Notes under the pieces: generated by a model
What the model saw: the letters and a program-made list of their open reading frames with translations, nothing else
Databases searched by the model: none
What the model was told of the DNA's origin: nothing
From: a virus
Lineage: Duplodnaviria > Heunggongvirae > Uroviricota > Caudoviricetes
IMG/VR virus record: IMGVR_UViG_2534681662_000010
Length of the DNA: 19,333 nt
Reading direction: 5' to 3' (one strand)
Made by a program: the position numbers and the translations under genes
Part shown: one piece after another, positions 3,233 to 6,298 of the stretch
Numbering within the stretch: position 1 is the first letter of the stretch
Layout: each line of letters begins with the position of its first letter

Positions 3233-3577
3233 ATGACTCAAAACTATGAACTGATTGTGAAAGGGATCCGCAATTTTGAGAATAAAGTTACGGTAACTTT
3301 AGCGTTACGGGACAAAGAACGCTTTGACGGTGAAATTTTTGACCTGGACATCTCGCTGGACCGTGTTGAAGGTGCCGCGCTGGAGTTTTATGAGGCAGCA
3401 GCCAGAAGGAGCATCAGACAGGTCTTCCTGGATGTTGCTGCCGGGTTATGTGAAGGGGATGAGCTGTCGCCGGAAAAGCGCCCCATAATTTTAGAGGCGC
3501 AGAATGTGTGGATAACCTACAAAGGAAAGCTACCGGGAAGAATTACTGGTTCTCTGAAGACTCCGCCGAAATGGTAA
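3233..3577 (+). CDS. Hypothetical 114-aa protein inserted between holin and endolysin (possibly YdfR/DUF1327-like lysis-cassette protein)
   Basis: ATG 5 nt after the holin stop, with GGGGAGAG RBS; soluble, no TM segment. Position matches the essQ-ydfR-rrrQ arrangement of the K-12 Qin prophage, but homology is not verified. Confidence 0.6.
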   Translation: MTQNYELIVKGIRNFENKVTVTLALRDKERFDGEIFDLDISLDRVEGAALEFYEAAARRSIRQVFLDVAAGLCEGDELSPEKRPIILEAQNVWITYKGKLPGRITGSLKTPPKW

Positions 3578-3815
3578 TTTCACCAGCATATTTTTCTTCC
3601 AGTAATACCGCCAGCCACTTGAAAGAATTTTGTTGTTGCTGGGACCATTTGGGGTTGAGTGATTCAAGCTGGAGCGATGCCAGTGTTGGTTGCATTTGTT
3701 CCTTGGGAATTGAGAATGCCAGATATGAAAATGCGACAGTAAGGGCATTTACATCATCCCGAAGCTTGGAAATGCAGTCGAGCAACTCCTGTAGAGAAAT
3801 GGTGCTATTGTCCAT
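3543..3815 (-). CDS. Hypothetical 90-aa protein, convergent with and 3'-overlapping the 114-aa gene
   Basis: ATG (revcomp 3813-3815) preceded by AGAGAGGA at good spacing. Product MDNSTISLQELLDCISKLRDDVNALTVAFSYLAFSIPKEQMQPTLASLQLESLNPKWSQQQQ... looks helical and soluble. No family recognised. Confidence 0.5.
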   Translation of the reverse strand: MDNSTISLQELLDCISKLRDDVNALTVAFSYLAFSIPKEQMQPTLASLQLESLNPKWSQQQQNSFKWLAVLLEEKYAGEITISAESSENQ

Positions 3816-3920
3816 AAACAATCCTCTCTATTGTATTTAACTATTCCTTGCCTGATTCAACAGGCCGGGACAGATAAACATATCCAGGGTTCAGAAACCG
3901 ATAAATCCTGATAAATATCC

Positions 3921-4463
3921 ATGAACGTAAAAATCAGATACGGCCTGTCGGCTGCCGTTCTGGCACTGATTGCCGTCGGGGCGCCTGCGCCTGATATTCT
4001 CGACCAGTTTCTGAATGAAAAAGAAGGTAACCACACAACGGCATACCGCGATGGTTCCGGCATCTGGACCATCTGTCGGGGTGCCACGGTGGTGGATGGA
4101 AAACCCGTTTTTCCCGGTATGAAACTGTCGAAGGAAAAATGCGACCAGGTTAACGCCATTGAACGGGATAAGGCGCTGGCATGGGTGGAGCGCAATATTA
4201 AAGTGCCACTGACCGAACCACAGAAAGCGGGTATAGCGTCATTTTGTCCCTATAACATTGGCCCCGGTAAGTGTTTCCCGTCGACGTTTTATAAGCGGCT
4301 GAATGCCGATGATCGTAAGGGGGCATGCGAGGCGATTCGCTGGTGGATAAAAGATGGTGGGCGTGATTGCCGCCTGACAAAAGGGCAGAAGAATGGCTGT
4401 TATGGGCAGGTCGAGCGGCGCGATCAGGAAAGCGCACTGGCGTGCTGGGGGCTGGAGCAATGA
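3921..4463 (+). CDS. SAR endolysin (T4-lysozyme/GH24-like muramidase with N-terminal signal-anchor-release domain)
   Basis: N-terminus MNVKIRYGLSAAVLALIAVGAPAP is a weakly hydrophobic Ala/Gly-rich SAR segment. The E...D...T catalytic spacing is present in NEKEGNHTTAYRDGSGIWTICRGAT. Paired with a pinholin, as in phage 21. Confidence 0.85.
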   Translation: MNVKIRYGLSAAVLALIAVGAPAPDILDQFLNEKEGNHTTAYRDGSGIWTICRGATVVDGKPVFPGMKLSKEKCDQVNAIERDKALAWVERNIKVPLTEPQKAGIASFCPYNIGPGKCFPSTFYKRLNADDRKGACEAIRWWIKDGGRDCRLTKGQKNGCYGQVERRDQESALACWGLEQ

Positions 4464-4996
4464 AAATTAATCCGGATCTTATAGGCGTTGTCGTTATTGC
4501 TGGCCTTTCGGTCGCTCTCGTCAAGAGTTGCTCTCACGCCAGTAATCTTCAGAGCGATAACGACGTTCTGCGAAGTGACAACTCTATGCTGGGGCAGGTA
4601 ATCGCCACCCAGGCATTCAACTTCAATCGATTCAATCAGGTTGCAGAACATGCCAACAGTCTTAACTCCCTGATCGACACCAGCACCGAAAAAACCGTAA
4701 TCGAATACCGGGAGATTCTCCGCCGTGAAAAAACCTGTGATCTGCCTGTTCCTGCTGATATCGCTGGTGGGTTGCTCGAATACACGTACCGTTTACGTGC
4801 CAGCGCCATGCACACCGATACCGGCAGACCTAATGAAGCCTATGATCGTACCGCTACCACCAGCTCAATGACCTACTGCCAAGCTGTCTTGTGGATTAAG
4901 CCGCTACTGGCGTTGATAGAAAAAGGAAATAATAATTTTTCGAGTATTCGTGAAATTGATGAGTTGCGTTACAGACCATCTGAGCATGGCCAGTAA
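4460..4996 (+). CDS. Rz-like i-spanin
   Basis: ATG overlaps the endolysin stop (ATGA). N-terminal TM segment (LIGVVVIAGLSVALV), then a long helical periplasmic region; an Rz1-like gene is embedded in the +1 frame. Confidence 0.8.
   Translation: MKINPDLIGVVVIAGLSVALVKSCSHASNLQSDNDVLRSDNSMLGQVIATQAFNFNRFNQVAEHANSLNSLIDTSTEKTVIEYREILRREKTCDLPVPADIAGGLLEYTYRLRASAMHTDTGRPNEAYDRTATTSSMTYCQAVLWIKPLLALIEKGNNNFSSIREIDELRYRPSEHGQ
4725..4871 (+). CDS. Rz1-like o-spanin (outer-membrane lipoprotein) embedded within Rz
   Basis: Hand translation from GTG 4725: (M)KKPVICLFLLISLVGCSNTRTVYVPAPCTPIPADLMKPMIVPLPPAQ, with lipobox LVGC and a proline-rich mature part. GGAG lies 9 nt upstream. Below the ORF-track size cut-off. 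Confidence 0.75.
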   Translation: MKKPVICLFLLISLVGCSNTRTVYVPAPCTPIPADLMKPMIVPLPPAQ

Positions 4997-5071
4997 GGTT
5001 GCAGGAAATTTAAAATCTGGCGATGAAATTTAATATTAGAAATTCATTGCCTAGTGAGATTAATAATGGGA

Positions 5072-5113
5072 ATCCCTTTGTGACGATAAGCTTTAACACA
5101 TTCACAAAGGGAT
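5072..5113. terminator. Perfect 12-bp inverted repeat (ATCCCTTTGTGA ... TCACAAAGGGAT) with 18-nt loop, between convergent Rz and the reverse-strand moron
   Basis: Arms at 5072-5083 and 5102-5113, A/T-rich flanks on both sides. Plausible bidirectional terminator, or a protein-binding palindrome. Confidence 0.5.
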
Positions 5114-5164
5114 ATTTAATATAGGGTGGTTAATTCCCACTTGCTGTGGTGTTTAGGGGGTAAT

Positions 5165-5857
5165 TCAAATCTTATCTAACTCATTATAGGCTTCGATAAT
5201 AAAAATTCTGATTTTAATAAGGCATGATTCAATGAAAGGAATTACTTCATGGTCATTCCCATGGAATCTTATTTTTTTCTCTTCGGTAATGACTATGTTT
5301 AAAGGTACACCATTACCACTTCTTTGTAATTTCCCATTTTCGAAAGTAAAGTCTTCTAATTTTTTGCCATTGATGTGGTTGTTTTTAAAGAGAATTTTTG
5401 CTGAGCTTCCTGCTGTGATTAAACCAAAACCATCTACGCTCACACTTAGGTCTTTAACAGAACTCTCTTCTCTTAAGGGGATTGGTTGTCTGTGCTTTAC
5501 TTCATTAGTGAGATTACACATCATTTCCAACCAAGATTCGCCAGTGTGATAATCCTGTATAGAAGTAAAAATTTTATATAATGGAGAAGATGATGGTGGG
5601 TTTATTTTTAGCGTCTTTGAGAAAAATTTATCAATAAACTCTTTTTTTCCGTAAGGGAAATATATTTTGGGGCGCTCATCATTACTGCGTGGAGAAATAT
5701 ATTTATCATAGGTATCATTAGCGAGATACTCTAAGGAACTTCGTAAGTTTTCCAAAATAGCTTTGACTTTTACAGGCTTGATATGCTGTGTCTGTCTCAT
5801 TATGTCAAGACTTTCTTCAACTTCTTGCAATAAGTCCAACGAGCCTTCTCTAGACAT
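5165..5857 (-). CDS. Hypothetical 230-aa protein; AT-rich moron at the bor-equivalent position (candidate lysogenic-conversion or anti-phage gene)
   Basis: Long reverse-strand ORF in a roughly 30% GC island inside roughly 50% GC phage DNA. AAGGAGA RBS (revcomp of 5863-5869) upstream of the ATG. No signal peptide or TM segment. No family recognised. Confidence 0.7.
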   Translation of the reverse strand: MSREGSLDLLQEVEESLDIMRQTQHIKPVKVKAILENLRSSLEYLANDTYDKYISPRSNDERPKIYFPYGKKEFIDKFFSKTLKINPPSSSPLYKIFTSIQDYHTGESWLEMMCNLTNEVKHRQPIPLREESSVKDLSVSVDGFGLITAGSSAKILFKNNHINGKKLEDFTFENGKLQRSGNGVPLNIVITEEKKIRFHGNDHEVIPFIESCLIKIRIFIIEAYNELDKI

Positions 5858-6240
5858 ACAGGTAATTCTCCTTTATGAATTTTCAACATGTTATAACTAA
5901 TAATATATTTATCATATAACTGTATGAATAAATTGTGAGATTAGTAATGCAAGTTTCTATCCATAGTGTTCTCTAAGTACCCGCTTCCATCATGTTGTTA
6001 CGGACGGTATGGCTAAAACAAAGCACCTGAAGTTAAACGTTCTGAACTTTATGCTCGTTGAGCATATGAATTATCTGTAACCCGATGCGCTGGTTGTGGT
6101 TCACATTGATGGTCGTAATCAGCAGCGGTGGTGCCTGATGGCATGCAACTTCTTACTTATAAAACTTCGTATGGAATTGTTGCCATAACGAGCCCAGCTT
6201 AGCAGTTTTTAATGGGTCCTCCCGGCAGTGTGTCCTGCCA

Positions 6241-6260: not shown

Positions 6261-6298
6261 AAAAGGCTAGTTTTTGAAATTTCATTCGTCATCACCAC

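Follow-up and report, generated by a model that had tools for sequence, protein, structure and literature searches.

We analysed a 19,333-nt stretch of viral DNA (Caudoviricetes; IMG/VR record IMGVR_UViG_2534681662_000010), hereafter called the window, in which a reverse-strand open reading frame (ORF) encoding 230 amino acids (aa) lies between the lysis and the packaging genes. An initial annotation had marked this ORF as single-gene cargo with a candidate anti-phage or lysogenic-conversion role, and its coordinates, between the end of the Rz-like ORF at 4996 and the cos site at approximately 6243, were verified. The Rz-like ORF carries an embedded Rz1-like lipoprotein ORF (4725–4871), and cos was placed at about 6243, the position to which the first base of the phage cdtI and Tritos records aligns. 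The GC content of the 230-aa ORF is 33.8% and its GC at third codon positions (GC3) is 30.7%, compared with 50.2% GC for the whole window and a GC3 of 51–58% in the neighbouring lysozyme, Rz, terS and terL genes; the low-GC island around it reaches from ~4850 to ~6050. An AT-rich gene with AT-rich upstream DNA in a phage of about 50% GC, as had been annotated, was therefore recovered, the value of roughly 30% given for the ORF being slightly low, and both the AAGGAGA ribosome-binding site 9 nt before the ATG and the downstream palindrome, whose 12-bp arms are 100% complementary, are present (Table 1). By our own estimate, the chance of 230 stop-free codons at the GC content of the ORF is ~3e-8, and because homologues in several phyla have invariant residues in common with it, the ORF is a genuine gene and no chance reading frame.

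Upstream of the ORF, a consensus scan yielded a sigma-70-like promoter candidate that matches the consensus at 9 of 12 positions and would start transcription near 5904, the region holding 8 such sites versus 5.7 ± 2.4 in shuffled sequences, and the CTCACA block of this candidate is also found in the upstream region of an Enterobacter homologue. Further upstream, a conserved block is shared among the E. coli, Enterobacter and Citrobacter cassettes (the window and loci L011 and L014–L016), and holds an inverted repeat of the CACTAT-N2-ATAGTG type that is imperfect in the window and perfect in Citrobacter (CACTAT-TG-ATAGTG); from its sequence, this block may be an operator with a regulatory role. 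The 120 nt upstream of the ORF, with the −35/−10 candidate and the inverted-repeat block, are partly kept across genera, and therefore the mobile unit is the promoter region plus the gene. Two of the 98 gene-carrying E. coli genomes, 64EVA (L045, ~1290–2060) and PK8566, have an IS1 element inserted ~150 bp 5′ of the ORF start, at a site equivalent to window positions ~5990–6010 just past the predicted promoter and the conserved block; the ORF is intact in both, and the insertion might alter its expression.

On the downstream side, the perfect inverted repeat between the convergent Rz gene and the ORF folds as RNA at −27 kcal/mol (z = −2.3). It has no T-run and is therefore not a canonical terminator, and its identification as a known RNA was likewise rejected, the sole Rfam match being mir-135 at chance level (E = 0.75). 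Since it has an 18-nt loop, no T-run and a z of −2.3, and is missing from the other cassette copies, we treat it as incidental or, at most, as a local transcript-end structure; in Citrobacter the ORF stops 5 bp from the spanin gene. An Rfam scan of the ORF region found no RNA family, and a search of the plus strand between the ORF and cos for a counter-defence gene like atiEcA of phage phi80 found only unconserved ORFs of 21–30 aa. The ORF belongs to a variable module that also comprises the Rz/Rz1 variant and the AT-rich island, and the edges of which were set by sequence common to other E. coli prophages: strain Esc29 has the same module flanks around 1146 bp of other sequence with no reverse-strand gene, and strain STEC719 retains the module to position 6283, followed by a different terS/terL pair.

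Table 1. Features of the 230-aa ORF and its surroundings, in window coordinates.
Feature	Position	Strand	Description
230-aa ORF	5165–5857	minus	ATG start; 26.5 kDa, isoelectric point (pI) 6.6; predicted helical HEPN-like bundle with an inserted beta domain
Shine-Dalgarno AAGGAGA	5867–5873	minus	9 nt 5′ of the ATG; read from the sequence
Sigma-70-like promoter candidate	5911–5939	minus	−35 CTCACA (5939–5934), 17-nt spacer, −10 TATGAT (5916–5911); consensus scan
Conserved upstream block	5953–5984	minus	pattern ACGGGTAC..GAACACTAT..GATAG; alignment of the upstream regions of six loci; putative operator
Perfect inverted repeat	5072–5113	none	arms 5072–5083 and 5102–5113, 12 bp, 18-nt loop; between convergent Rz and ORF
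cos end, approximate	6243	none	position 1 of the cdtI and Tritos phage records; position 1 of mEp460_4F5 falls at 6238
Variable module	4374–6213	none	Rz/Rz1 variant, AT-rich island and ORF; edges are sequence common to other E. coli prophages
Helix-2 residues 32–48, codons	5713–5764	minus	polar stripe K32, E36, R39, S40, Y44, D48; 90–98% conserved among 202 homologues
T117-N118-E119-V120-K121-H122, codons	5492–5509	minus	most conserved motif of the family; proposed arginine-less HEPN active-site motif
Residues 126–200, codons	5258–5482	minus	seven-strand beta domain inserted directly after H122; proposed trigger sensor
R197-x5-H203 string, codons	5249–5269	minus	not conserved

To evaluate how constant this position is, 17 genome loci representing nine protein clusters were compared, which came from Escherichia (two terS/terL sets), Enterobacter, Citrobacter, Raoultella, Cronobacter, Atlantibacter, Superficieibacter and an E. 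cloacae variant. At every one of them the gene was found on the opposite strand between the spanin or endolysin gene and the packaging genes, and this held over at least four packaging-module types (lambda-like DUF1441 with TerL; HNH with Terminase_4 and TerL; Terminase_3 with portal_3 and Mu_F; and another type) and several lysis cassettes, with endolysins of the Phage_lysozyme or the Glyco_hydro_19 family. The gene is encoded by 36 viral contigs in IMG/VR, of which 33 were analysed; both flanks could be labelled in 19 and all 19 had the same arrangement. One contig carries the gene upstream of its lysis genes, and one is P2-like.

The occupancy of the slot was then surveyed in E. coli prophages having the same lysozyme or the same cos/terS, as the initial annotation had suggested, and the slot was found to be empty (four strains), to hold a reverse-strand iss/bor gene, or to hold a pair of kinase and PP2C genes; iss occupies it in strain MS 85-1, in a prophage with the same terS. 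In lambda, the Rz–cos slot is the site of bor. The Bor and Iss products share with our ORF the slot and the opposite strand, and differ from it as unrelated ~97-aa lipoproteins with a signal peptide. As previously annotated, the 230-aa protein is not Bor-like, having no lipobox and a soluble predicted fold, and neither a signal peptide nor a transmembrane segment was found: its N-terminus is acidic and its sole hydrophobic stretch (KD19 hydropathy value 1.66, residue 205) is the C-terminal core helix of the soluble model. In E. coli S1-KEN-03-A (L048, 990–2922), the slot carries plus-strand genes for a protein kinase and a PP2C phosphatase and a small hypothetical gene; the kinase and phosphatase genes resemble modules of Pf-phage prophages which are reported to control lysogeny and defence (PMC11341870). 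In phi80 the slot holds rha, the reverse-strand taiEcA and atiEcA, and taiEcA was inactivated by a transposon once its counter-defence gene had been deleted (PMC11364771). The slot content is therefore variable among E. coli prophages with the same cos/terS. The annotated view of an independent gene of foreign composition in the Bor-equivalent slot was borne out, and the ORF is almost certainly accessory mobile cargo in a hotspot.

All public copies of the protein are labelled "hypothetical protein", and the exact sequence occurs on at least 1000 contigs; among 5426 complete E. coli genomes, 98 carry the gene in the chromosome. A full-length match in PHROGs was obtained to phrog_13652, which is listed with function unknown. 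A word-indexed search returned 74 relatives, mostly of Enterobacteriaceae, with a tail at ~30% identity, and a profile search of 1.84 billion representatives expanded the family to 991 clusters (defined at 50% identity) at E ≤ 1e-3 and 480 at E ≤ 1e-10, nearly all of them of 215–250 aa and matching over the full length. The earlier statement that the protein belongs to no recognised family thus holds for curated libraries and fails for sequence space at large. Genome scans placed members in Gammaproteobacteria (Rouxiella, Siccibacter, Acinetobacter, Marinobacter, Shewanella and Rheinheimera), Betaproteobacteria (Neisseria), Bacteroidota (Chryseobacterium, Epilithonimonas, Flavobacterium, Dokdonia, Tenacibaculum and Salinimicrobium), Deinococcales, Planctomycetia and Pontiellaceae, together with a partial archaeal copy in a Nitrosotalea metagenome-assembled genome. 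A tblastn search with the ORF found no match at E ≤ 1 in 50,697 phage records, and the megablast matches were restricted to the cos/terS side. No mention of the protein accessions or the PHROG identifier was found in a literature of 8 million papers, where a very recent naming is still possible, and neither the accessions nor the motif strings are present in the supplements of DefensePredictor and of Vassallo et al.

Several distant members reside in recognised defence surroundings. The Rouxiella copy is the sole gene between the portal gene gpQ and the replication gene gpA of a P2-like prophage, a cos-proximal locus that is a P2 defence hotspot and holds old and tin in P2 itself (Rousset et al., PMC9122126). 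Another copy is two genes away from a fused PARIS AriAB (E = 4e-197), and another adjoins a DRT UG29 reverse transcriptase, beyond which MzaA is the next gene; others have a type II methylase as their neighbour or occur at a distance of two genes from an Argonaute-associated protein with a restriction endonuclease (REase) domain. The GC content of the gene was lower than that of its flanks in all 24 diverse loci inspected. When three genes on each side of these 24 loci were clustered by BLAST, no conserved partner was detected, and shared neighbours were seen only in three syntenic Neisseria loci. In Neisseria-type contigs (L002–L007, L026, L028 and L034), the member comes after an acyl-CoA-ligase-like gene and shares 4 bp with the start of yejF. 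The neighbouring 515-aa protein of the Neisseria-type member P0072, with AAA_21/ABC matches and PADLOC matches to mad3, AriA and AbiLi, was considered as an ATPase partner; it is YejF, the ATPase of a microcin C/oligopeptide ABC transporter (NCBIfam, 1e-179). A two-gene ATPase-plus-effector system was rejected because the partner is YejF with yejB/E-like permease genes upstream. The Acinetobacter member adjoins a semialdehyde dehydrogenase gene.

The AlphaFold2 model of the 230-aa protein, built from a 44-sequence alignment, reached a pLDDT (predicted local distance difference test) score of 89.6 and a predicted template modelling (pTM) score of 0.74. It contains helices at residues 3–23, 28–53, 72–82, 92–98, 102–105 and 109–122 and a C-terminal helix at 205–227, with a beta domain of seven strands (128–198) inserted between helix 109–122 and the C-terminal helix. 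The predicted fold, an up-down bundle of four helices, can be superposed on HEPN domains of known structure, and in this model the helices may be assigned as H1 (3–23), H2 (28–53), an insert, H3 (up to residue 116), the motif (117–122), the beta insert and H4 (205–227). The beta domain varies more than any other part of the protein, with 50% identity versus 69–80% in the helices among close homologues, and a pairwise identity of 19% versus 36–49% among distant ones; we propose that this variability is that expected of a specificity domain. Two side results of the structure searches concern viral proteins: matches of Foldseek to papillomavirus E2 in the PDB were discarded at a template modelling score (TM) of ~0.2, and the sole significant match in BFVD was A0A514TZW7, an unnamed 275-aa viral protein (E = 5e-5, probability 1.0, TM 0.55/0.46), which may be a remote relative carried by a phage and built on the same two-domain plan.

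Residue conservation was calculated over 202 full-length homologues, with 80 members as a second, distant set. The best conserved motif, T-N-x-x-K-H, ends helix 109–122: H122 is present in 202 of 202 homologues, K121 in 201, N118 in 192 and T117 in 161, and K121 and H122 are also invariant in the distant set. Position 117, where canonical HEPN motifs have arginine, is T in 161, N in 14 and V in 14 of the 202. N118 (95%) directly follows the missing arginine and precedes H122 by four residues, and E36 (90%) lies within E-x2-R39 and K32-x3-E36, which is not exactly the Ex3[KR] pattern of HEPN families. In HEPN families, a polar residue follows the arginine, an acidic Ex3[KR] motif lies upstream and long inserts are known, and in Csx1 a beta-hairpin comes directly after the HEPN motif (PMC3710099); as a sequence pattern, the motif could fit a HEPN reading save for the arginine. 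The polar stripe of helix 28–53 has an i, i+4, i+7 spacing that puts its residues on one helix face, where they may be part of an active site or an RNA groove. Further conserved positions are L42, the F67-P68-Y69-G70 loop, Q101 and W109-L110, and the nine polar residues K32, E36, R39, Y44, D48, Q101, N118, K121 and H122 are 90–100% conserved from Enterobacteriaceae to Bacteroidota and Planctomycetota. The HEPN idea of the initial annotation survives in the predicted fold, with the conserved histidine being H122 in a motif that lacks the canonical arginine, while the R-x5-H string on which it had been based (KIRFHGNDH; R197 and H203) is present and not conserved: residue 197 is R in 47, K in 46 and E in 28 of the 202, and residue 203 is Y in 70, I in 54 and H in only 6, so that this candidate motif was dismissed.

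Compared with characterized systems, the ORF product may have its closest working model, by analogy, in HepS of the Salmonella prophage Gifsy-1, which stays silent until it is activated by a phage tail protein, whereupon it cleaves tRNA (Sargen et al., 2026; PMC13043305). HepS is a single-gene prophage HEPN protein of <250 aa that needs no partner or antitoxin, is expressed in the lysogen and causes abortive infection (PMC13043305), features that the ORF product would share. The Tha-1 and Tha-2 proteins of S. aureus prophages differ in having 301 aa, a C-terminal HEPN domain, a canonical RNSIMH motif, an inhibitor (Ith) and Gram-positive hosts (PMC11087260); their N-terminal region is predicted at low confidence, and the variable domain of the ORF product lies inside the bundle instead. 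The HEPN–MNT toxins (PDB 8xdj, 4nqf, 5yep, 7ae2 and 1jog) and the HEPN domain of RnlA/LsoA (5hy3) have 7–17% identity to the ORF product and differ from it by RX4HXY or Rx4H motifs, an adjacent MNT or Dmd-type antitoxin and no beta insert; no adjacent MNT antitoxin was found at the 24 diverse loci, the prophage flanks being the spanin gene and terS or HNH. A precedent for an arginine-less HEPN domain is PaREP1/8, a family that keeps the histidine without the arginine and for which other conserved basic residues were proposed as substitutes (Anantharaman et al., 2013; PMC3710099), and which differs in being archaeal and found in other contexts.

The closest positional counterpart is TaiEcA (phi80 orf63; compared as L008:4366–4980, minus strand), which shares with the ORF the slot upstream of packaging, the divergent orientation interrupting the Q-dependent late operon, a similar size (204 versus 230 aa) and the nature of a prophage moron, with expression in the lysogen predicted for the ORF as well. 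taiEcA was shown to act in defence, to be expressed in the lysogen and to be damped by the opposing Q-dependent late transcription in a "noncontiguous operon" (He et al., 2024; PMC11364771), and Tai homologues lie mostly upstream of the packaging module (PMC11364771). Homology between the two proteins is undetectable (BLASTP E = 35; hhalign probability of the family profile 0.1%), and Tai blocks tail assembly without killing the cell and is accompanied in phi80 by the adjacent counter-defence gene atiEcA, which has no conserved equivalent here. Identity with phi80 TaiEcA was therefore ruled out, the sequences being unrelated despite the common slot.

Taking position, genomic context and fold together, of which the context carries the most weight, the ORF product probably acts in anti-phage defence. 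This gives some substance to the anti-phage role annotated initially, as far as relatives in recognised defence hotspots and islands are concerned, with the function itself deduced from position, context and fold. More tentatively, and by analogy and from the model, the ORF could be a stand-alone HEPN-like abortive-infection protein of a new family, and an RNase mechanism of the HEPN type is similarly a possibility rather than an expectation. In the mechanism we propose, the gene would be expressed in the lysogen from its own sigma-70 promoter, and the protein would fold as a HEPN-like four-helix bundle with a metal-independent RNase site made of H122 and K121 of T-N-x-x-K-H together with E36, R39, Y44, D48 and Q101, in which R39 or K121 would stand in for the missing motif arginine. 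The hypervariable beta domain after H122 would sense a component of the infecting phage and switch the nuclease on, in analogy to HepS and Tha, and cleavage of tRNA, mRNA or rRNA would then arrest growth and abort the infection. Upon prophage induction, Q-antiterminated late transcription running antisense through the gene would damp it, as for taiEcA in phi80; alternatively, the prophage's own proteins might fail to trigger the protein. Stand-alone prophage HEPN defence proteins are already known, among them HepS, Tha and several Abi proteins; what is new here is an unannotated large cross-phylum family, an arginine-less motif, a beta domain after the proposed catalytic histidine and a strict positional preference.

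A number of observations weigh against this interpretation. The arginine of the Rx4-6H motif is absent family-wide, which marks an inactive domain in several HEPN lineages. Searches of the 230-aa protein, including the Pfam and PADLOC searches proposed in the initial annotation, returned no family at E ≤ 10 from Pfam, NCBIfam and PADLOC-DB v2.0.0 (5027 models), so the gene is in no defence model of the latter, and a Pfam scan of 80 diverse members gave no consistent family and no HEPN family. Foldseek found nothing significant in the PDB, with HEPN toxins appearing only at probabilities of 0.33–0.38, and profile searches of the PDB with either profile gave no match and no HEPN chain. The clustering of the conserved residues in the fold was deduced rather than seen in coordinates, and the promoter evidence for the ORF is weak. 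The Neisseria member (29–33% identity) lies inside a yejBEF-like ABC transporter operon, an odd, housekeeping context for a defence gene.

The main rival explanation, which we consider unlikely, is that of a non-catalytic defence protein that binds some protein of the infecting phage and blocks a late step such as tail assembly or packaging in the manner of Tai, its arginine-less bundle serving as a scaffold. This would accord with the slot and antisense orientation common to the ORF and TaiEcA, a tail-assembly blocker (PMC11364771), with the missing canonical HEPN arginine, with a variable beta domain that suits a binding module, and with the lack of a conserved antitoxin or partner, which a non-toxic binder would not need. 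However, the 90–100% conservation of nine polar residues across phyla is typical of a catalytic or ligand-binding site and is not expected of a fast-evolving binding surface, and the protein has no similarity to TaiEcA at the values given above. The same nine residues might instead form a new active or ligand-binding site on a HEPN-like scaffold without the canonical arginine, with the beta insert as an allosteric switch. Its target would then be other than bulk RNA, for instance a particular modification of tRNA, a second messenger of nucleotide type, or the cos/terminase step, to which the gene is invariably adjacent in cos phages; we regard this as rather improbable. If it were true, the family would represent a mechanistically new and widespread single-gene immune sensor-effector.

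About equally improbable is a moron without any anti-phage role, whose cytosolic product would alter the physiology, regulation or fitness of the lysogenic host. In its favour, bor and iss are lysogenic-conversion genes of the same slot (in lambda and in MS 85-1, respectively), the Neisseria yej operon and the Acinetobacter semialdehyde dehydrogenase gene are ordinary chromosomal contexts, and the family is absent from a defence database (PADLOC-DB v2.0.0 search). The protein nevertheless has no export signal, its fold is like that of HEPN nucleases, members recur in defence hotspots and islands, and an occurrence in marine, soil and gut bacteria of many phyla argues against a niche-specific conversion; conversion of the Bor/Iss type in particular is unlikely because the protein is cytosolic and is found in marine and soil bacteria too. 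Least probable of all these readings is a role serving the phage itself, either as an anti-defence protein or superinfection regulator or as an addiction toxin with a small RNA or peptide antitoxin. Neither MNT nor any other conserved neighbour was found at the diverse loci, nor an RNA family in the Rfam scan of the region. The gene is missing from close prophage relatives and so is dispensable for the phage; being antisense and having its own promoter, it suits expression in the lysogen and not lytic growth; and the chromosomal, non-phage copies speak against a part in the phage life cycle. A HEPN-like abortive-infection protein remains our preferred, still tentative, interpretation of the ORF.

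Several further features were noticed elsewhere in the window. A reverse-strand ORF of 232 aa (1038–1736) encodes a colicin pore-forming domain alone (PF01024, 7e-49), with no receptor or translocation domains, and a plus-strand ORF of 146 aa (576–1016) encodes a colicin E1-type immunity protein (PF03526, 3e-6), so that positions 576–1736 hold a truncated colicin and immunity pair within the prophage, in a patch of 40–42% GC. Insertion sequence fragments adjoin this pair (208–612 and 1716–1988), namely an IS3-type OrfA (HTH_Tnp_1; minus strand) and an IS1 InsA (plus strand). At the matching region, E. coli ACN001 has tRNA-Ile, tRNA-Arg and TolA-like genes, and the window itself has no tRNA genes. 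Just 5′ of the holin gene, a 131-aa ORF (2411–2806) in a patch of 34.5% GC encodes an AraC-type helix-turn-helix (HTH_18, 6e-12; HTH_AraC, 1e-10) and has the appearance of cargo, either a C-terminal fragment or a short regulator of the AraC family. A second antisense gene in the late operon is a reverse-strand ORF of 92 aa (3543–3821) inside the lysis cassette, which overlaps the end of a ydfR-like gene and is a RefSeq conserved hypothetical protein (WP_000370545 in ACN001) with no Pfam match.

If the proposed function is confirmed, a family of ~1000 clusters that Pfam, NCBIfam and PADLOC do not contain would be given a function, and the gene would be the third unrelated occupant of the slot of proven or probable defence type, after Bor/Iss and Tai, which would strengthen the case for the lysis–packaging slot as a general hotspot of immune genes, like the cos-proximal hotspots of P2 and P4. 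The combination of T-N-x-x-K-H and a beta insert would then offer a test of how HEPN nucleases are rewired and stay silent without an antitoxin, and the carriage of the gene by 98 of 5426 complete E. coli genomes could influence which hosts therapeutic or temperate phages infect.

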